A stretch of 64,000 nucleotides of DNA, taken from Sphingomonadaceae bacterium. Lineage in GTDB: Bacteria > Pseudomonadota > Alphaproteobacteria > Sphingomonadales > Sphingomonadaceae. Below are positions 45,081 through 55,193 of the stretch, piece after piece (positions within the stretch are counted from its first letter, which is position 1; every line of letters begins with the position of its first letter). The notes below the pieces were generated by a model. That model was not told where the DNA came from. It made no database searches and saw only the letters and a program-made list of their open reading frames with translations. The stretch is taken from contig JBDONL010000003.1 in the NCBI GenBank assembly GCA_039831335.1, positions 652,238 to 716,237 of the forward strand. Direction: 5' to 3'. The translations under genes were made by a program, and so were the position numbers.

Positions 45081-45156
<76 letters not shown>

Positions 45157-45416: not shown

Positions 45417-46202
45417 TCAGGCGAAGACATCCGCCAGCGCTGTGCCCGACGGCCCTTCTTTCCATGTCAACAACTCAACGTAGAGAGAGGTTTGTGCGGT
45501 GCTCCACACCGTCATAACAATTGTCGACATGAAGAGACTGAAGACGAGGAAGCTTATGGGGAGGTGACCCTGCTCCAATTGGGACAGGCCACTGAACCCG
45601 GCCAGCCCAAATGCGATCCCGGTGAAAATCCAGTACACGATGACTATGATAGCTTCGACCGCGAACACTTTCCAACGCGCCCCTTTGGTAAGCGCACGGC
45701 TTCTTGAAAAGGCACCGAACACACCGGTCTTTTCATGCACCAACGCCGGTGCAGCAATGGCCCACATACAATAGAGCATGACGCCTGGGACAATCAGCAA
45801 TATGAACCCCAGGCCCACGCCCAAGCCCATGAGGATGGCCAAGCCTATAAGTGGAAGAATAGCACCAAGGCCCGTCTGTATGCACTCACCGAAACTGGCC
45901 TTATGACCATGTGTGTGCGCGATGGTAGCCCGTACCAAAGCGCCTTGGACCAGCGATTGAAGCACGATCGAAACGATCGCTCCGATAATCGCCAGGCCGA
46001 CCACGCCCAGTTGCTGATAGTGTGTTATGGCGCCCCCACGCCAGGACATATTAAACCAGTTGAAAACGACCGAGGGCAGTCCGCCGAAAATCAGCGCTAT
46101 ACCGAACATTACTACCGAATTGTCTGCCAAGACCGAGAAGGTCCGGCTGAATACGCGTCCGATTGAAACCTGCTGGTTGTCTTCGATTGCCTGCGTTGCC
46201 AT
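45417..46202 (-). CDS. Hypothetical polytopic membrane protein
   Basis: 261-aa ORF with about 6 hydrophobic helices and no recognised catalytic motif. Confidence 0.6.
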   Translation of the reverse strand: MATQAIEDNQQVSIGRVFSRTFSVLADNSVVMFGIALIFGGLPSVVFNWFNMSWRGGAITHYQQLGVVGLAIIGAIVSIVLQSLVQGALVRATIAHTHGHKASFGECIQTGLGAILPLIGLAILMGLGVGLGFILLIVPGVMLYCMWAIAAPALVHEKTGVFGAFSRSRALTKGARWKVFAVEAIIVIVYWIFTGIAFGLAGFSGLSQLEQGHLPISFLVFSLFMSTIVMTVWSTAQTSLYVELLTWKEGPSGTALADVFA

Positions 46203-46344
46203 CCCTGCGCCCCTTTTTCCTTATTTGAATGGCAGCTTAAGACCATTGCGATTTTTGTCCAGCGCCATTCTGCGCCATTGCACATGGCGGTAAACCGGTT
46301 AGTTTCATGCGCCTAAGGGGTCGTAACAGGGGTTGTCGATACAC

Positions 46345-47052
46345 ATGGCCGTGCCATCCGGTCTTGATCTTTCGGGGGTGTCCGACCCGCGCTTTGTCGC
46401 AGCACACCAGGCTCTGGTGAATGATAACGCAGTGCAGTTCGATCTCCAGAAGGCGCCTCCTCCCCCACAACCTCCACAATGGTTGTCGACCCTCGGTCAT
46501 TGGGTCGAAGACATACTGAAGCCAATCGGTCGCTTCTTCGAATGGCTGACCAGCTTCATGCCGAATGCTCCGGTCGCCCGCGTATTGTTGTGGCTTGTCA
46601 TCATCGCGATCGTCAGTGCGGCCTTGTGGCTCATCATCAATCGTCTCCAAGGCAAATCGCTCTGGTCAAAACGTGCACGCGCTCAGCACGATGAACCAGG
46701 AGTAGCGAATGAAAGCGATTGGGTACCAGACCGGAATGCCGCATTCGACTGGCTTGCCGAAGCCGACCAATTGGCCGCAAATGGTGCCTTTGCCGAGGCG
46801 ATACACCACCTTTTGTACCGCAGCATCGAGGATATCGAGCACCGCCGTCCCGAGCTTGTCCGACCGGCTTCAACGAGCCGTAATCTTGCGGCTGCAAGCG
46901 CAATCCCATCGGAAGCGCGAGCCGGTTTTGGGCAAATCGTCGCGCTTGTGGAATACAGCCTGTTTGCAGCCAAATCGGTCAATGAAGCTGATTGGGTAAC
47001 AGCACGCGATGCCTATCACGATTTCGCCATCGCACGAGCTTGGCAGGTATGA
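46345..47052 (+). CDS. DUF4129-like membrane protein, first gene of the MoxR/DUF58 operon
   Basis: Central TM (VLLWLVIIAIVSAALWLII) and a helical C-terminal domain (HHLLYRSIEDIEHRRPELV...STSRNL). Start at ATG 46345 or TTG 46333. Confidence 0.6.
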   Translation: MAVPSGLDLSGVSDPRFVAAHQALVNDNAVQFDLQKAPPPPQPPQWLSTLGHWVEDILKPIGRFFEWLTSFMPNAPVARVLLWLVIIAIVSAALWLIINRLQGKSLWSKRARAQHDEPGVANESDWVPDRNAAFDWLAEADQLAANGAFAEAIHHLLYRSIEDIEHRRPELVRPASTSRNLAAASAIPSEARAGFGQIVALVEYSLFAAKSVNEADWVTARDAYHDFAIARAWQV

Positions 47053-48323
47053 GCGATATTGGCCCAAACTCAGGCGACAGAAGAATTTTTTCGGTCGCCA
47101 CTGTCGCCATCCTACTGGCGATCGGCATTGCAAGTTTTTTCGGAGCGCTGTTGCTAGGCGCTTATGCGCCCGTTCTTCGCCAGAGTGGAGGCGGCGGTGA
47201 ACATGCCATGTCGCGTTCCGCAGTAGGCTTTGCCGGAATAGTCCGACTCGCCTCCGACATGGGTCGCAATCCAGAAATAATTCGGCAGCAATCCCGCTGG
47301 ATGAATGCTCAGCTGGTGGTGGCCACGCCAGAATCCGCTTCCATTCCCATCGGCGACCTCCTGACAACGAGACAATACAAGACGACACTGCTGGTGTTGC
47401 CGAAATGGGAAACCGTTGCGGATGATGGTCATCGCGGCTGGGTTCGCATCAAAGGCCTGCTGCCGCGAAGCGAACCGGAAGGCGTTCTCGCGCCGGGGGA
47501 CGATTACACCATCGCAAGGCGCGACAAGTCAGTGGGTCAACTGACGAATGCGGCTGATATACCGGGAAAGATCGTTTTTGCCGCACCCAAGCATCTTCAA
47601 GTTATTACGAGCTACAAACCCGGCGGAAGTTCTTCCACATCATCTACCTCCAAAGCCGGTGATGACGCCCCCCTCCCGCAGAAGTTCGAACCATTGATAA
47701 CAGACGGTAAGGGTGGAACTGTACTTGGAAGGCTGGGTAATCTCTACATTCTTGCGGACCCGGACCTGATCGACAATGCCGGGTTGAAAGACGAGCGCAA
47801 TGCAGCATCGGCGCTCATGTTGCTCGACTGGCTCAACCGGTTGCACCCGCAGTCGATCGGGTTCGACGTTACGCTTAACGGCCTGGGTGGCAGCCGCAAC
47901 TTGCTCGAGCTTGCTTTCGGGCCACCTTTTCTCGCGGTAACATTATCGCTGCTCGCTGTTGGGCTGCTGCTCGGTTGGCAGGCAATTTGGCGCTTCGGAG
48001 CCGCACAACAGCGTGAACGCGCAATTCCCTTCGGCAAGGCCGCATTGGTCGAGAACGGGGCGGCTCTTATTCGCAAGGCCCGACGAGCCAGGCACTTCGG
48101 CGGCCGATATGCCTCCGTGATCCAGGAACAGGCGGTGCAGGCGTTCGGAGTTCCCGCGCGCATAAAGGGTGACGCGATCACCTCCTACCTCGACGAAATC
48201 GACGAACACAATCGCTTCTCGGACCTGGCCTTCGCGGCACAAGAAGCTGGGGACGAAACCGAAATGCTCGACGCCGCACAGGCGCTCTATAGATGGCAAC
48301 AGGAGAAACTGGATGACACTTGA
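47049..48323 (+). CDS. DUF4350-like membrane protein
   Basis: ATGA overlap with the upstream gene. N-terminal TM (VATVAILLAIGIASFFGALLLGAY), a large extracytoplasmic domain, a second TM (FLAVTLSLLAVGLLLGW) and a cytoplasmic tail. The family call rests on architecture and context. Confidence 0.55.
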   Translation: MSDIGPNSGDRRIFSVATVAILLAIGIASFFGALLLGAYAPVLRQSGGGGEHAMSRSAVGFAGIVRLASDMGRNPEIIRQQSRWMNAQLVVATPESASIPIGDLLTTRQYKTTLLVLPKWETVADDGHRGWVRIKGLLPRSEPEGVLAPGDDYTIARRDKSVGQLTNAADIPGKIVFAAPKHLQVITSYKPGGSSSTSSTSKAGDDAPLPQKFEPLITDGKGGTVLGRLGNLYILADPDLIDNAGLKDERNAASALMLLDWLNRLHPQSIGFDVTLNGLGGSRNLLELAFGPPFLAVTLSLLAVGLLLGWQAIWRFGAAQQRERAIPFGKAALVENGAALIRKARRARHFGGRYASVIQEQAVQAFGVPARIKGDAITSYLDEIDEHNRFSDLAFAAQEAGDETEMLDAAQALYRWQQEKLDDT

Positions 48324-49269
48324 CGAAGTCAAACAACTGACGAGGGACATCCGGCAGGAAGTGGGCAAGGCAGTCGTCGGTCAGGACAGGACTGTCGATC
48401 TCCTTCTGGCCGCGCTGCTATCGGGCGGCCACGTGCTGCTCGAAGGGCCGCCCGGAACTGCCAAGACGCTGCTGGCACACAGTTTTGCCGAAGCGGTCGG
48501 AATGCGTTTCGGTCGTATCCAGTTCACTCCCGACCTGATGCCGGGCGATATTATCGGCGCCAACCTTTTCAACTTCCAGACCTCGACGTTTACTCTCACC
48601 CGAGGGCCGATCTTCACCGAGATGCTACTCGCGGACGAGATCAACCGCACACCGCCCAAGACACAGGCAGCGTTGCTAGAGGCCATGCAGGAACGAACCG
48701 TCACAATCGACGGCCAGAGCCTGGCCTTGGGGGACCGCTTTACAGTCATCGCAACGCAGAACCCGATCGAGCAGCAAGGAGTTTACCCCCTGCCCGAGGC
48801 ACAGCTCGATCGTTTCCTGTTCAAGCAATTGGTCGATTATCCTTCGCTTGAAGAGGAACAGCGGATCATTGCCGCGCATGGCCATGTCGGTGATCGTATG
48901 CGTCCGGAGGCATGGGGCGTCGGCAAGGTCACGAACGCAGAATCTGTTGGAAAAGCTGTTGCCGCCGTTCGGGAGGTCAAGCTGGTTGATGAGGTGGTCC
49001 AGTATATCGCCGCGCTTATCCGCGGCACTCGCAGCGTGGCGGAGCTCGAAAACGGCGCTAGTCCACGTGCCGGAGCCCTGCTTGCTGGCGCTGCGAGAGC
49101 GTGGGCGGCAATGGACGGCAGGGATTTTGTCGTTCCCGACGACGTGCAGGCGCTGGCTCCCGCACTTCTGCGGCATCGTCTGATCCTTTCTCCGGCCGCA
49201 GAGATCGATGGGCGGCAGGTTGAAGACATCCTCGCAACCATCATCGATTCCATTGAGGCGCCGCGTTGA
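48313..49269 (+). CDS. MoxR family AAA+ ATPase
   Basis: Walker A LEGPPGTAKT, Walker B LLADEINR, and ATQNPIEQQGVYPLPEAQLDRF (sensor and arginine-finger region typical of MoxR). 11-nt overlap with the upstream gene. Confidence 0.92.
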   Translation: MTLDEVKQLTRDIRQEVGKAVVGQDRTVDLLLAALLSGGHVLLEGPPGTAKTLLAHSFAEAVGMRFGRIQFTPDLMPGDIIGANLFNFQTSTFTLTRGPIFTEMLLADEINRTPPKTQAALLEAMQERTVTIDGQSLALGDRFTVIATQNPIEQQGVYPLPEAQLDRFLFKQLVDYPSLEEEQRIIAAHGHVGDRMRPEAWGVGKVTNAESVGKAVAAVREVKLVDEVVQYIAALIRGTRSVAELENGASPRAGALLAGAARAWAAMDGRDFVVPDDVQALAPALLRHRLILSPAAEIDGRQVEDILATIIDSIEAPR

Positions 49270-50579
49270 TTTACCCCGCACGTCCGGCGATTCTGGCAGC
49301 ATTGGCGGGAGCGCCGATCGCGCTGGCCATTGCCGGATTTCTGCCTGGGCTGTGGTATATCGGGCTTATCTGGTCTTGCGCTGTGCTGTTGCTCGTAGCG
49401 GTTGATGGCGCGCTGGGACCTCGCCCCGCCACGGCTAGGGCCGAAATCAAATTGCCCGGTACTGCTTCGGTTGGAACCGCTTTCGAGGCGCTCGCCAAAA
49501 TACATTTCGATGCCGAGCAAGCCCCATCTTCGGTGGAGGTCGCACTTGGCATGGCATCGATTCTAGAAGCCACCAAGAATGTAGAGATCGTACAGATCGA
49601 TGGACGCCACGGAACGGGTCATTTCGAAGTCACTCCCCTGCGACGGGGTACGGCGCATTTTCCCCGTATCTGGATAAGATGGAGAGGACCTTTCGGCCTG
49701 GCCTGGAAGCAGCGGGTGATTAACATAGATGCTGGGGTGGCGGTCCTGCCCGACATCGAGACGGCACATCGCCGCGCGGGCGAAATCTTCCGTCGCCATG
49801 CCCTCCAGGGACTACTGCTGCAAATTGATCGTGGTGACGGGACAGATTTCGATACGCTGACCGAATACAAGCCGGGAATGGACAAGCGGGCAATCGACTG
49901 GAAGCAATCGGCACGCCACATCAAATTGCACGCAAAGGAATTCCGGACCGAACGCAACAACCAGATCGTCTTTGCAATCGATGCAGGGCGTCAGATGTCG
50001 GACCCGATCGCCGGGCTTCCGCGACTTGATAGGGCCGTTTCCGCAATGCTCCAGAACGCTTGGATTTCGCTCAAGCTCGGCGATCGCGCAGCGTTGTTTT
50101 CGTTCGATTCCCTTCCTCGTCTTGCAAGCGGTTTCGTTGCTGGAACCCGTGCCTTCGGTGAGCTCCAACGGCTGGCTGCGCAAATCGACTACAGTTCCGA
50201 AGAGCCCAACTACACGTTTGCCCTTGCGACCTTGTCCCGGCGTCTCAAGCGCCGCTCAATGGTTGTGCTTATTACCGAATTCACCGATCTAACTGCTGCC
50301 GATTTCCTGATCGATGCGGTGTCCCGCTTGATGCGCAAGCACCTTTTGATGATTGTGGTCTTGCGCGACGAGGACCTTGAAACATTCGCTTCACACGAGC
50401 CGGTGAGCACCGACGACGTTACCCGGGCCGTGACCGCCGCCGCACTGTTGCGGGAACGGCTGCTGGTGCTCACTCGCTTGCGCCATCTTGGAGTCAACGT
50501 TGTGGAGAGTGAACATGATCGCCTCGGCGATCGCATCACCGCGGCATACCTCGATCTCAAGCGGAGAAACCTGCTGTGA
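49266..50579 (+). CDS. DUF58 domain-containing membrane protein
   Basis: Two N-terminal TMs, DUF58 signature DFDTLTEYKPGMDKRAIDWKQSARH and a VWA-like fold with IVFAIDAGRQM at the MIDAS position. TTGA overlap with moxR. Confidence 0.85.
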   Translation: MIYPARPAILAALAGAPIALAIAGFLPGLWYIGLIWSCAVLLLVAVDGALGPRPATARAEIKLPGTASVGTAFEALAKIHFDAEQAPSSVEVALGMASILEATKNVEIVQIDGRHGTGHFEVTPLRRGTAHFPRIWIRWRGPFGLAWKQRVINIDAGVAVLPDIETAHRRAGEIFRRHALQGLLLQIDRGDGTDFDTLTEYKPGMDKRAIDWKQSARHIKLHAKEFRTERNNQIVFAIDAGRQMSDPIAGLPRLDRAVSAMLQNAWISLKLGDRAALFSFDSLPRLASGFVAGTRAFGELQRLAAQIDYSSEEPNYTFALATLSRRLKRRSMVVLITEFTDLTAADFLIDAVSRLMRKHLLMIVVLRDEDLETFASHEPVSTDDVTRAVTAAALLRERLLVLTRLRHLGVNVVESEHDRLGDRITAAYLDLKRRNLL

Positions 50580-51592
50580 GCACTCCCGTCGAATCCGATG
50601 ATATCTATTTCAACACCACACGGCTGCGGCTTGCGCGCGAGGCGGATTGGGACCGGCTTGATCACATCATAAGCCAGCTGGAAAAGAAATCCGCCAAATC
50701 GCTCGACGATGATGATTTGCTGGCGTTGCCAGTGCTGTATCGCGGTGCGTTGTCTTCCCTGTCGGTGGCGCGCGAGACGTCCCTCGATCGCTCGCTAACC
50801 CGCTACCTCGAACAGCTGTGCACCCGTGCCTACTTCCAGATCTACGGGGTGAAGGTATCGGGCTGGCGACAGGTCGCGAACTTTTTTGCCGAGGGATGGC
50901 CCGGCGCGGTGCGCAACATATGGCGCGAAACACTGGTGGCCCTGTTGCTGACCGTGCTTGGGACTCTCTTGGGATATTTGCTTGTACGCGGTGATCCGAG
51001 CTGGTTCTTCGACCTCATGCCAGGAGGGATGGCACAGGGGCGCGATCCCGCAGCCTCTGCGCAGGCACTCTCCCAAACGTTGTATGATCCGGGCAAGGAG
51101 GGTTTTCTCGGGATATTTGCCACAGCGCTGTTCACGCATAATTCGCAGACAGCGCTTTTCGCCTTCGCGCTGGGTTTCGCGTTCGGGCTACCGACCGCCA
51201 TGCTGCTTATCTACAATGGCGTGATGCTCGGGGCGCTGTTCGCCGTATTTGCCCCCAAGGGCCTTGGTGCGTCATTTGCGGCCTGGATCATGATCCACGG
51301 GACCACTGAGTTGTTCGCCATCATGCTGGCAGGTGCGGCCGGTTTTCGCATCGGCACTGCAGTGGCTTTTCCCGGCCCTCTCGCTCGTCTCGATGCGGCC
51401 GTGCAGGCAGGCAGGACTGCCGGGCTGGTCATGCTCGGTGTGGTAACAATGCTACTCGTGGCGGGTATCCTCGAAGGTGTCGGTCGGCAGACGATCCTTG
51501 TCGACTGGCAACGCGCTGCAATCGGTTCCGCGATGCTGTTTTGCTGGTTGACATATTTCTACCTTCCACGGCGGCACACTCATGATCGGTAA
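50576..51592 (+). CDS. Stage II sporulation protein M-like (DUF95) membrane protein
   Basis: Cytoplasmic N-domain plus about 5-6 TMs, with the characteristic IMIHGTTELFAIMLAGAAGFRIG. GTGA overlap with DUF58. Confidence 0.75.
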   Translation: MSTPVESDDIYFNTTRLRLAREADWDRLDHIISQLEKKSAKSLDDDDLLALPVLYRGALSSLSVARETSLDRSLTRYLEQLCTRAYFQIYGVKVSGWRQVANFFAEGWPGAVRNIWRETLVALLLTVLGTLLGYLLVRGDPSWFFDLMPGGMAQGRDPAASAQALSQTLYDPGKEGFLGIFATALFTHNSQTALFAFALGFAFGLPTAMLLIYNGVMLGALFAVFAPKGLGASFAAWIMIHGTTELFAIMLAGAAGFRIGTAVAFPGPLARLDAAVQAGRTAGLVMLGVVTMLLVAGILEGVGRQTILVDWQRAAIGSAMLFCWLTYFYLPRRHTHDR

Positions 51593-52457
51593 GGCAAAAT
51601 CCCCACGCCGAAAGCGACGTACGCTGAAACGCAATTTCGTCACGCCTGAAGGTGTCGACCTTCAACTTACACTCGGCTCGGCTGGCGAACGCGCGGGTGC
51701 GTTTCTGATCGACCTGATAATTATGTTCGCAATCCTGATCGCAGCAAGTCTTATTACTGCCGCGCTCTTCAATGGTTTTGGTAGCGATGCTGATCCGGTG
51801 TTCGCAATCATCTGGCTGCTCGGTTTCTTCATGCTGCGCAATTTCTGGTTCACCCTGTTCGAGATGGGCGGTCGAGGCGCTACGCCCGGGAAACGCCTGT
51901 TGGGTTTGCGAGTGGTCGCTCGCGACGGTGCAAGACTGAGCGGGGCGGCGGTCGTCACCCGCAATGCCTTGCGCGAGATCGAGATTTTCCTGCCATTCTC
52001 GCTGCTGGCAGCTACCGGAGCAGAGGGAAGCAATACCGATGCCTATATCTGGGCAGCTCTCTTATGGAGCGGATTGTTCCTGTTCCTGCCACTGTTCAAT
52101 CGCGACCGATTGCGTGCCGGTGACATGCTGGCTGGCACCTGGGTGGTTCAGGTTGTCAAAAACGATCTGGCGTTCGATCTCACCGCAGCCACGAACGAAC
52201 GGCAGCGCACCCATTTCACCGACCAAGCGCTCGACCTGTATGGCGAATTCGAACTTCAGACTCTGGAGGACGTGCTGCGAAGGAACGATCCCGAAGCAAT
52301 CCGTATCGTTGCCAAGACTATCCGCAGCAAACTTTCAATGCCGGATGAAGGAGACGATTATGACTTCCTGTTCGACTATTATGCCGCCCTTTGCGCGCGC
52401 CTCGAAAAAGGCCTGATGCTCGGGAAGCGTCGGACCGACAAATTCGAGAATGCGTGA
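51582..52457 (+). CDS. RDD family membrane protein with a C-terminal soluble extension
   Basis: RDD pattern (RAGAFLIDLII ... RDRLRAGDMLAGTWVV). 11-nt overlap with the upstream gene. Confidence 0.75.
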   Translation: MIGKAKSPRRKRRTLKRNFVTPEGVDLQLTLGSAGERAGAFLIDLIIMFAILIAASLITAALFNGFGSDADPVFAIIWLLGFFMLRNFWFTLFEMGGRGATPGKRLLGLRVVARDGARLSGAAVVTRNALREIEIFLPFSLLAATGAEGSNTDAYIWAALLWSGLFLFLPLFNRDRLRAGDMLAGTWVVQVVKNDLAFDLTAATNERQRTHFTDQALDLYGEFELQTLEDVLRRNDPEAIRIVAKTIRSKLSMPDEGDDYDFLFDYYAALCARLEKGLMLGKRRTDKFENA

Positions 52458-52548
52458 GGAGGTCATACGATAACACAGGAGCGAATGTTAACGTCACGCG
52501 ACACAAACGGCGCAACGCTGTGATGGTGGTGTGACATCAGCTCTCGAC

Positions 52549-52566
52549 ATCACATCTTGATGTGAT
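52549..52566. promoter_or_regulatory. Perfect 8-2-8 inverted repeat immediately upstream of ribBX (candidate operator)
   Basis: ATCACATC-TT-GATGTGAT ends 11 nt before the ribBX ATG. Additional TGTGAT/TGTGAC copies lie at 52519 and 52530. Confidence 0.4.
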
Positions 52567-52577
52567 ACATATGGGGT

Positions 52578-53853: not shown

Positions 53854-54273
53854 ATGGCCCAGTTTCTTATCGTCGAAGCACGTTTCTATGCGCATCTCAA
53901 CGACCAGCTTATCGACGGGGCACGCAAGGCGCTTGAGGCGAAGGGACATTTGGTCGAGGTGTTGACCGTTCCGGGAGCGCTGGAAATACCCGGTGCCATT
54001 GCACTCGCTGCTGAAAGCGGTCGCTACGATGGCTTTGTCGGCATTGGCGTTGTGATCCGTGGGGAAACCTATCACTTCGAGATCGTTGCAGGGGAGAGCG
54101 CGCGTGGGATCATGGCGCTGACCATGGACGGTATCGCCATCGGCAATGGTATCCTCACCGTCGAAAACGAAGCGCAGGCCCAGGTCCGCGCCGATCCCGC
54201 GCAAAAGAACAAGGGTGGCGAAGCGGCCGAAGCGGCCATGGCGCTGCTCGCATTACGGGATAAATTTGCATGA
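53854..54273 (+). CDS. ribH: 6,7-dimethyl-8-ribityllumazine synthase
   Basis: 139 aa. [10 protein letters not shown]...IRGETYHFE motif. Confidence 0.9.
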
Positions 54274-55193
54274 TGAACCATCCTGCCCTCTCCGGGATTC
54301 CCCTCGTCCTTGGTGGTAACGTATTCGGCTGGACCGCCGACAAGGACACCAGCTTTGCCGTGCTCGACGCTTTCTACGAGGCCGGAGGCCGGATGATCGA
54401 CACGGCCGATGTCTATTCGGCGTGGGTTGATGGCCATAAGGGTGGGGAATCGGAAACGGTGCTTGGCGAGTGGCTCGAAAGCCGCGGCGTGCGCAAGGAT
54501 ATGCGTATACACACCAAGACCGGAATGCTGGGCGGCAAGGAGCTCTACGAGCCAGAGCGCGTGCTCAAATCGCTCGATGCCTCGCTCGAGCGGCTACGCA
54601 CAGACTATATCGATCTGTAATACGCCCACCGCGATTATGAAGAGCTGACTCCAGACGTAATCGTGACCGCTTTCGACGGGGCCGCCAAAAGCGGGAAAGT
54701 TACATCGCTTGGCGCGTCGAACTTCGGTTCCGACCGACTTAAGGCGATGCTCGATACAGCATCCACAAAAGGTGCGGCCCCGTTCAGCGTTCTGCAAAAC
54801 GAATACAATCTCGTGAGCCGCGACGGCTTTGGGCGCGACCTGCAGGATTTGTGCAAGTCGAAATCCATCCCGATGCTGCCTTATTTCGGATTGGCTGCGG
54901 GCTTCCTGACCGGGAAATATCGCAAGCCGGAAGACTTCGAGGAAGGAGCACGAGGCGCTGGGATCAAGAAGTTCCATGAAAAGGGCGCGAGCGTCCTCAA
55001 AGTTATGGACGCGATTGCGGAGGAAACCGGTGCGGGCCATGCGGCTATCGCGCTCGCATGGTTGCGTGAGCAACCCGCCATCGGTGCGCCAATTGCGAGT
55101 GCGCGCAAGCCCGAGCAGCTAACCGACCTGATCGCGTCGACCAAACTCGATCTCAGCGATGCGCAAATCCGGAGCCTCACTGAAGCGCTCTAG
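54270..55193 (+). pseudogene. Aldo/keto reductase interrupted by one in-frame TAA
   Basis: ORFs 54270..54620 and 54663..55193 are in the same frame. The sequence reads ...LRTDYIDL-TAA-YAHRDYEE..., where AKR family members have DYIDLY(Y/Q)xH. TAA at 54618..54620. Confidence 0.75.

Follow-up and report, generated by a model that had tools for sequence, protein, structure and literature searches.

A conserved MoxR/DUF58 membrane-protein gene cluster in a Sphingomonadaceae bacterium and its possible role as an inner-membrane chaperone system

Architecture and conservation of the locus

The stretch of DNA considered here, called the window throughout, comprises 64,000 nucleotides (nt) of contig JBDONL010000003.1 (positions 652,238 to 716,237, forward strand) in assembly GCA_039831335.1 of a Sphingomonadaceae bacterium. 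Between positions 46333 and 52457 it carries six plus-strand open reading frames (ORFs), g1 to g6, which encode in this order a DUF4129-like protein, a DUF4350-like protein, a MoxR-family ATPase, a DUF58 protein, a SpoIIM-family protein, and an RDD-family protein (Table 1); for g1, both 46345 and 46333 come into question as the start. An earlier account of this DNA, made from the letters alone (hereafter the sequence-only reading), had described the six genes and the five stop/start overlaps that join them, and every coordinate was re-found as it had been given. The six genes are real, but that account overlooked a seventh, g0, which encodes a membrane protein and runs divergently from g1.

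Table 1. Features of the MoxR/DUF58 cluster and its upstream region (positions of the window)
Feature	Position	Strand	Basis or remark
tRNA gene	45081-45153		72 bits; between rodA and g0, so that the elongasome operon and the MoxR cluster are set apart
g0, polytopic, 261 amino acids (aa), UPF0259/GPDPase_memb/DUF7847-like	45417..46202	-	Weak Pfam
g0/g1 divergent intergenic control region	46203..46344	.	97% identical to Qipengyuania algicida
TGTCCAG box, candidate g0 -35/-10	46256..46262	.	Minus-strand TGGACA-N16-TAAGCT (reverse complement of 46234-46239)
Dyad CGCCAT-N5-ATGGCG	46273..46289 (arms 46273-46278 / 46284-46289)	.	Inverted-repeat search
Promoter-like TTGCAC-N16-TAGTTT for g1-g6	46278..46305 (TTGCAC 46278-46283; TAGTTT 46300-46305)	+	Cross-genus motif
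g1, bitopic, DUF4129-like, 235 aa	46345..47052	+	Pfam sub-threshold plus orthologues; ORF opens at TTG 46333
g1/g2 junction	47049-47052	+	ATGA overlap
g2, DUF4350-like, 424 aa	47049..48323	+	Pfam sub-threshold plus orthologues
g2/g3 junction	48313-48323	+	11-nt overlap
g3, MoxR-family AAA+ ATPase, 318 aa, soluble	48313..49269	+	Pfam
g3/g4 junction	49266-49269	+	TTGA overlap
g4, DUF58 protein, 437 aa	49266..50579	+	Pfam
g4/g5 junction	50576-50579	+	GTGA overlap
g5, SpoIIM-family polytopic membrane protein, 338 aa	50576..51592	+	Pfam
g5/g6 junction	51582-51592	+	11-nt overlap
g6, RDD-family membrane protein, 291 aa	51582..52457	+	Pfam

The conservation of the cluster was surveyed in species-representative genomes with the RDD protein as anchor; the scan returned at least 315 loci, of which the best 80, mostly from Sphingomonadales, were used. 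Genes were mapped in these loci by phmmer, and 14 shorter loci are cut by contig ends. The order and strand of the six genes are the same in all 70 complete loci, and the six families recur together in several phyla. The junctions are kept as well: g1 and g2 overlap in 66 of 70 loci (by 4 nt in 53 of them), g2 and g3 in 67 of 71, g4 and g5 in 72 of 79, and g5 and g6 in 80 of 84, while g3 and g4 overlap in 39 of 73 loci and are separated by a gap of no more than 30 nt in a further 18. These overlaps exceed chance and persist across related loci. A single, co-functional operon from g1 to g6 is well supported; the stoichiometric co-expression claimed along with it had been deduced from the overlaps, which are lineage-specific in detail. 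In actinobacteria, for instance, SpoIIM and RDD sit apart as a divergent pair and do not form a coupled tail. The GC content of the cluster is that of its surroundings and is uniform over the region. Because the flanking genes are not conserved, the six to seven genes are regarded as the unit.

The nearest relative of the locus was found in Qipengyuania algicida, with 95% identity of the g6 protein and 93.9% identity of the DNA over 7.4 kb, which places the origin of the window in an erythrobacterial sphingomonad. Hephaestia mangrovi is the only exception among the loci with sufficient flank: a deletion there (L048, 8714-10861) runs from g0 into the middle of g5, so that g1-g4 are gone and g0 directly borders a g5 fragment of residues 132-333.

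The breadth beyond Sphingomonadales was taken from contig look-ups and PLSDB. The order DUF4129-DUF4350-MoxR-DUF58-SpoIIM-RDD also occurs in a Deltaproteobacteria metagenome-assembled genome (MAG), in two large metagenome genomes, and on Rhizobium chromids, where the RefSeq names of the genes match these families. A Planctomycetota MAG has MoxR-DUF58-SpoIIM-RDD on a short contig, and DUF58 adjoins SpoIIM on Paracoccus plasmids. Among Actinomycetota, all seven families are present in Nonomuraea, arranged as GPDPase_memb/DUF7847, DUF4129, DUF4350, MoxR, and DUF58, followed by the divergent SpoIIM and RDD genes; Nocardia has a similar arrangement without a recognisable DUF4350. The cluster is common to Alphaproteobacteria, Planctomycetota, and Actinomycetota and, by literature mapping, corresponds to Rv3689-Rv3695 of Mycobacterium tuberculosis.

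The cluster has its seventh, facultative member in the divergent gene g0. The product of g0 has about five to six hydrophobic segments and weak Pfam matches to GPDPase_memb (5e-05) and UPF0259 (1e-04), and by a profile search 51 of 70 loci have a copy of its family beside the cluster. The clusters of Nonomuraea and Nocardia also hold g0-family copies, co-directional with and directly upstream of DUF4129. The placement varies elsewhere: g0 lies downstream in the Deltaproteobacteria MAG, on the same strand in the locus L005, and is sometimes duplicated. Four tandem g0-family paralogues follow straight after the RDD gene in one metagenome genome (L006, 10964-14475), and duplicated copies are also seen in L013, L064, and L067.

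Domain composition and predicted topology of the proteins

The family assignments of the sequence-only reading hold in the Pfam check for g3 to g6, which score above the cut-off, while g1 and g2 are sub-threshold in the window and are backed via their orthologues. It was also right in calling MoxR the sole recognisable enzyme; no client enzyme is co-encoded.

The MoxR protein g3 matches AAA_3 (PF07726; 2.5e-61, 205.8 bits) and AAA_lid_2 (PF17863; 5.9e-22, 77.6 bits). Its Walker A motif GPPGTAKT (48445-48468) is followed by Walker B, LLADEINR, at 48625-48648, the ATQNP and GASPRAG motifs were located, and sensor 1 and sensor 2 are intact. The nearest solved structure is Cytophaga MoxR, 2R44 (7.7e-67).

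The next protein, g4, matches DUF58 (PF01882; 5.7e-19, 68.6 bits against a cut-off of 23.4) and, slightly below the cut-off of 27, VWA_2 (1e-05, 26.6 bits). Hydropathy gives it an N-terminal transmembrane (TM) hairpin and then about 390 residues including the DUF58/vWA-type domain, which is predicted to be cytoplasmic. Its IDWK.SAR signature is kept across phyla, and the alignment across phyla favours the TTG start. The metal-ion-dependent adhesion site (MIDAS) is degenerate: a D-x-G-x-x-M at 49971-50000 (aa 236-245), which reads D-A-G-R-Q-M-S, stands in place of DxSxS. The D-x-G is invariant in eight of eight sequences from proteobacteria, actinobacteria, and the two metagenome genomes, which suggests a metal-independent interaction of DUF58 with a partner. 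A sequence search of the PDB with g4 gave no matches.

The polytopic proteins g5 and g6 close the operon. SpoIIM (PF01944) is matched by g5 with 2.6e-31 and 109 bits, and hydropathy gives an N-terminal helical domain of about 115 aa followed by 5-6 TMs. All 120 best profile matches of g5 have PF28475 (DUF8413) together with PF01944; the DUF8413 call of g5 is taken from these aligned homologues, since the Pfam scan of g5 itself gave no PF28475 match. The conservation of the N-terminal domain equals or exceeds that of the external parts, and the AlphaFold2 (AF2) model of g5 is all-helical, with a predicted local distance difference test score (pLDDT) of 90. The RDD match of g6 (PF06271) reaches 2.9e-18 and 66.9 bits against a cut-off of 24.1; its layout by hydropathy is a basic N-terminus, 3-4 TMs, and a C-terminal helical domain of about 110 aa, which is kept in an alignment spanning distant loci. 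A shared ancestry of the cytoplasmic helical domains, g5 with g6 and the g2 tail with g1, was considered and rejected (hhalign probability <1%).

Natural fusions link the later genes. When the g5 family is clustered at 50% identity, SpoIIM->RDD fusions account for three of the representatives (P0177, P0194, and P0195; 632-656 aa) and a DUF58->SpoIIM fusion for one (693 aa); all are metagenomic gene calls, and the fusion order is the gene order. As Rosetta-stone evidence, they argue for a physical association of DUF58, SpoIIM, and RDD. In Bernardetia sp. (Bacteroidota; L088, 6953-9731), a gene for a 617-aa SpoIIM protein stands divergently to an RDD gene, with no MoxR or DUF58 nearby. The Bernardetia pair suggests that SpoIIM-RDD is an older, self-standing module.

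The start of g1 had been set at TTG 46333 by the sequence-only reading, and here the analysis departs from it. Translation most likely begins at ATG 46345, because a 98%-identical database protein is 235 aa long; TTG 46333 is disfavoured because an AGGGG Shine-Dalgarno-like stretch abuts it with zero spacer. The match of g1 to DUF4129 (PF13559) is below the Pfam cut-off (E=0.017, 15.6 bits against 24.8), but its orthologues, at 36-55% identity, bear PF13559, and one of them is called a DUF4129 protein by NCBI. The same-position homologues of Nonomuraea (5.6e-12) and Nocardia (7e-12) match DUF4129 at 45-46 bits. Hydropathy finds a single TM at aa 80-98, followed by the basic, helical DUF4129 domain, a C-terminal domain that is probably cytoplasmic.

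A similar situation holds for g2, whose match to DUF4350 (PF14258) is sub-threshold (E=0.022, 15.5 bits against 30.4) and covers the last 34 profile positions only. Its orthologues, at about 50% identity, bear PF14258 and are named DUF4350 proteins by NCBI, and the same-position homologue of Nonomuraea matches the family over its full length (104 bits, 1e-29); by orthology, g2 is likely a member of DUF4350. Hydropathy together with the positive-inside rule gives a layout of TM1, an alpha/beta domain of about 250 aa, TM2, and a helical tail of about 115 aa; the alpha/beta domain is probably periplasmic and the tail cytoplasmic, and the tail shows no less conservation than the periplasmic domain. 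The AF2 model of g2 (pLDDT 79) weakly resembles class-I glutamine amidotransferase (GATase)-like folds, the GIFT domain of IFT52, and a beta-galactosidase, matches that are all of one kind and agree with the placing of DUF4350 as GldG/flavodoxin-like by Makarova et al. The g2 alignment contains no invariant Cys or His, and g2 is therefore regarded as lacking the GATase triad.

Given these topologies, nearly all the soluble mass of the system, save the DUF4350 domain, is predicted to lie on the MoxR side of the membrane.

Upstream region and genomic surroundings

The region between g0 and g1 had been described as holding a dyad and three GCCATT repeats that could act as an operator. The dyad and two direct GCGCCATT copies are present, but the third GCCATT lies on the minus strand, at 46228-46233. 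Over the 153 nt upstream of g1, five substitutions separate the window from Q. algicida, and four of the five affect all three GCCATT copies as well as each arm of the dyad; the dyad reads CACCAT/ATGACG there and is 4/6 complementary. GCCATT itself is not enriched over the window (50 matches against 46 expected). An alternative dyad, CGCCAT...ATGGCG at 46263-46268 / 46284-46289 with its arms 15 nt apart, is perfect in the window and still perfect in Q. algicida (CGTCAT...ATGACG) through paired changes at 46265 and 46287; this agreement concerns two sequences and may be due to chance.

Elements of a promoter-like kind recur more widely. The 7-mer TGTCCAG occurs in 23 of 69 upstream regions against 1.2 expected, TTGCRC in 45 of 69 loci within -160..-20 against 4.8, and the full pattern TTGCRY-N15-17-TMNNNY in 27 of 69 against 1.1, counts that are not independent because the loci are related. 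The looser GTCCAG box is found in 25 of 48 loci with a divergent g0 and in two of 21 without, and the spacing of the g0 promoter element does not fit every genus. A simple sigma-70 scan did not pick up the promoter-like element of g1-g6. The stretch 46232-46305 can be read from these motifs as a compact pair of back-to-back divergent promoters, for g0 and g1.

These promoter-like elements bear on the operator as well. The spacer and left arm of the dyad overlap the -35-like hexamer TTGCAC, and a -35 position is frequent among repressor sites; the existence of the dyad and repeats in the window and the survival of the alternative dyad through a double change in Q. algicida would also suit a dedicated repressor. 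But the dyad is not conserved even in the 94%-identical locus of Q. algicida, what it overlaps is the conserved TTGCRC, and other genera keep TGTCCAG and TTGCGC-N16-T(A/C)NNN(T/C), which are promoter-like. With no regulator gene adjacent and GCCATT at chance frequency, an operator at these repeats is quite improbable, and this part of the sequence-only reading is not supported.

Upstream of the cluster lie mreC, mreD, pbp2, rodA, the tRNA gene, and then g0; on its downstream side are ribBA, ribH, and, as two separate ORFs, an aldo-keto reductase. A link to mreCD-pbp2-rodA was rejected, as rodA is nearby in one surveyed locus, on the other side and on the opposite strand, and the tRNA gene stands between in the window; a link to ribBA was likewise rejected, the adjacency being confined to the sister species. 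Besides g0, no other flanking family recurs at the surveyed loci; the top cluster, from 19 loci, looks by its coordinates like an antisense ORF of g0. An FGE-sulfatase gene follows the RDD gene in seven Sphingomonadales loci (e.g., L001, 15894-16910) and an arylsulfatase gene is seen in Rhizobium (L087, 10407-12092), but sulfatase-related genes are too infrequent to count as a partner. The two aldo/keto reductase ORFs, 54270-54620 (profile positions 1-105) and 54663-55193 (122-289), are probably a frameshifted or interrupted gene or the result of a sequencing error. The spacer between g6 and ribBA (52458-52577) holds nested inverted repeats, ATCACATC/GATGTGAT at 52549-52556/52559-52566, GTGTGACATCA/TGATGTGATAC, and TGTGATG/CATCACA; a search for a flavin mononucleotide riboswitch in this spacer, before ribBA, found nothing at the Rfam gathering score.

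Proposed function and comparison with known systems

It is proposed, with moderate confidence, that the cluster encodes a housekeeping inner-membrane MoxR/vWA chaperone system that is vertically inherited and acts on co-encoded membrane partners. The mechanism would be analogous to those of RavA-ViaA, CbbQ-CbbO, NorQ-NorD, and midasin. The soluble MoxR ring (g3) would serve as the engine and would be recruited to the membrane by its adaptor, the TM-anchored DUF58 protein (g4). The bitopic DUF4129 and DUF4350 proteins (g1 and g2) could couple events across the membrane, and g2 would supply the one periplasmic domain of any size, GldG/GIFT-like but without a catalytic triad. SpoIIM and RDD (g5 and g6), often with g0, would form the polytopic core. 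We infer that these proteins join in a single complex and that energy flows from MoxR towards the membrane: ATP hydrolysis by MoxR, acting via DUF58, would assemble, remodel, or gate the SpoIIM-RDD complex. The target would be an envelope- or membrane-level process and not the maturation of a soluble enzyme. Gene content and order, the junction overlaps, the spread across phyla, and the natural fusions are directly observed and favour the proposal, whereas the topologies and the envelope target are predictions. The lack of a co-encoded enzyme, the conservation of the cytoplasmic parts, the mycobacterial findings given below, and the independent prediction by Makarova et al. also speak for it.

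A bolder version, in which the seven proteins are one MoxR-powered trans-membrane machine, with a SpoIIM-RDD core, a DUF58 adaptor, and a GIFT-like periplasmic DUF4350 domain, and a widely conserved but unrecognised player in envelope growth or division, M. tuberculosis Rv3689-Rv3695 included, is tentative and rather doubtful. If it were true, a first visible trace of that machine would be that Rv3694c and Rv3695 co-purify with a divisome protein.

Several observations weigh against the proposal of a chaperone system. At least one lineage can do without the system, as g1-g4 and half of g5 have been lost in Hephaestia mangrovi. The DUF58 vWA domain is without the canonical MIDAS serines, so the usual metal-mediated capture of a substrate may not apply. 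The topologies of g1-g6 come from a crude hydropathy and positive-inside analysis, and a physical complex and its coupling to the ATPase are proposed for this organism by analogy. The fold search with the g2 model gave weak matches only (E>=0.08), none of them significant, and the g5 model matched nothing meaningful in the PDB, solved transporters included (E>=0.55, TM-score<=0.25). The seventh gene, g0, is absent from 19 of 70 neighbourhoods. An apparent co-regulation in the RNA sequencing of Mycobacterium chelonae, with log2 changes of -6 to -9 across about 12 contiguous genes, was rejected and is not counted as evidence, because such a contiguous change may reflect a deletion.

A different role could be read from the weak GIFT and GATase-like fold matches of g2 and from the membrane nature of all the partners, namely that of a dedicated export or secretion apparatus, in which MoxR/vWA energises or assembles a polytopic channel and the GldG-like DUF4350 handles an exported polymer or protein outside. 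This reading follows the model of Makarova et al. (2015) for the archaeal arCOG01314 system: the triad of a DUF4350-like protein, MoxR, and vWA is shared with the archaeal clusters, and DUF4350 is reported as GldG-like (PMC5898192). Such an apparatus is nevertheless unlikely. Neither within the cluster nor as a recurrent neighbour is there a gene for a cargo, an S-layer or Ig-like surface protein, an outer-membrane component, or a protein with a signal peptide; translocase activity is not known for MoxR ATPases; and no solved transporter could be matched to the SpoIIM model.

The chaperone proposal must also be weighed against membrane-proximal quality control or unfolding. TgpA-type transglutaminases, which are encoded in MoxR-DUF58 operons, end in a C-terminal DUF4129 module, and g1 could be a peptidase-less remnant in a system akin to TgpA/YebA, with MoxR extracting or unfolding membrane proteins. 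The MoxR-vWA-transglutaminase operon was proposed as a membrane-proximal degradation system (Zhang and Aravind, 2012), and TgpA is reported to be important for the viability of Pseudomonas aeruginosa (PMC3507681). The scans of all seven proteins gave no sign of a transglutaminase or peptidase domain, with no Transglut_core match (E<=10 for g1 and g2, E<=0.01 for the others), and the SpoIIM-RDD pair is without a counterpart in TgpA operons, so that a role of this kind is distinctly unlikely.

It is very unlikely that the cluster is a trans-envelope sensor or transducer, in which the periplasmic DUF4350 senses an envelope cue and MoxR-vWA relays it, much as proposed for Esr. The score of g3 against bpMoxR exceeds the Pfam cut-off (46.8 against 27 bits) but is far under the 205.8 bits of AAA_3. 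The conserved cytoplasmic tail of g2 would suit a relay, and MoxR-vWA-containing Esr gene clusters are reported to mediate an actinobacterial response to epibionts (2026 preprint), yet at the examined loci no kinase, phosphatase, FHA, transcription factor, beta-propeller, or effector gene was found in or near the cluster, and PADLOC finds nothing for it. An anti-phage or conflict system is hardly credible, for although many MoxR-vWA systems are conflict systems (Kaur et al., 2020), the PADLOC matches are to generic AAA+ only, the gene order is uniform and widespread in Sphingomonadales with a host-like GC content, and the flanks are housekeeping genes (mre/rodA, rib) and not a defence island.

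The proposed chaperone system may now be set beside known ones. Few AAA+ systems are as widespread as the MoxR-vWA pairs, whose clients are mostly unknown. The Bat operon (BatA-E) of Bacteroides and Leptospira is reportedly headed by a MoxR (MRP-type) ATPase and a DUF58 protein, a head that it shares with the present cluster, but it continues with the TM-anchored vWA proteins BatA and BatB and with TPR proteins, none of which are found in this cluster or its flanks. The sequence-only reading had held the arrangement to be unlike RavA-ViaA, CoxD/E, and BatA-E, and this is confirmed, with g3 scoring 22.8 bits against the RavA model NF010054, whose cut-off is 681. The logic of RavA-ViaA, CbbQ-CbbO, NorQ-NorD, and CoxD-CoxE is the same, a MoxR-family AAA+ ring with a vWA adaptor; those pairs serve a defined enzyme (e.g., a respiratory complex, Rubisco, cNOR, or CO dehydrogenase), in contrast to the present one, which has no client enzyme and whose MIDAS is degenerate. 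The MoxR-DUF58-TgpA (YebA-like) operon, e.g., P. aeruginosa tgpA, has the same MoxR and DUF58 pair in a membrane-proximal setting; its transglutaminase core is absent here, and the present cluster adds DUF4350, SpoIIM, and RDD. The MoxR-vWA-beta-propeller/Esr systems differ by beta-propeller, kinase, and FHA genes, which were not seen at the inspected loci of this cluster.

The SpoIIM of B. subtilis, a part of the DMP engulfment complex, shares PF01944 with g5. However, g5 has the additional DUF8413 N-domain, its partners are RDD and MoxR/DUF58, and its host is a non-sporulating alphaproteobacterium; SpoIID and SpoIIP were not seen beside the cluster at the inspected loci, where no dedicated search for them was run.

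No published mechanism for this cluster was found in full-text literature searches. The claim that none of its components has a defined role accordingly stands for experimental mechanism, but the cluster type had already been described by Makarova, Galperin and Koonin (2015). Archaeal DUF4350-MoxR-vWA clusters (arCOG01314) are predicted as a secretion or membrane-remodelling complex, and bacterial SpoIIM-vWA-COG0714 neighbourhoods are already noted there (PMC5898192). The core triad of DUF4350, COG0714 MoxR, and vWA is common to both; the archaeal clusters add Ig-like/S-layer-type proteins (pfam07760), which are absent here, and their DUF4350 has a signal peptide and one C-terminal TM, whereas that of the window has an N-terminal TM anchor. 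DUF4129, RDD, and UPF0259-like proteins are not listed among the archaeal components in Table 2 of that source. The present cluster looks like a bacterial sister architecture of the arCOG01314 system and not a member of it.

The copy in the window is an ordinary member of the cluster type already noted, uncharacterised experimentally, and not a new kind. Added here are its description as three modules with the seventh gene, the fusion-based contacts of DUF58, SpoIIM, and RDD, and the systematic degeneracy of MIDAS. The architecture spans at least three phyla and includes M. tuberculosis, whose Rv3689-Rv3695 (moxR2 region) has the same products: membrane protein, DUF4350, MoxR, DUF58, SpoIIM, and RDD. 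The orthology is that of a table in PMC8191103, in which Rv3690 has no entry and a cluster of M. chelonae whose product names are the same is mapped to Rv3689, Rv3691, Rv3692, Rv3693, Rv3694c, and Rv3695. In bacillus Calmette-Guérin, Rv3691 belongs to the genes that slow growth requires and induces (PMC2685279), and Rv3694c and Rv3695 co-purify with the divisome-associated Rv0954 (PMC8093794). The value of the cluster lies in a well-defined problem, in tractable hosts such as Sphingomonas, Caulobacterales, Rhizobium, or M. smegmatis, and in this M. tuberculosis counterpart.

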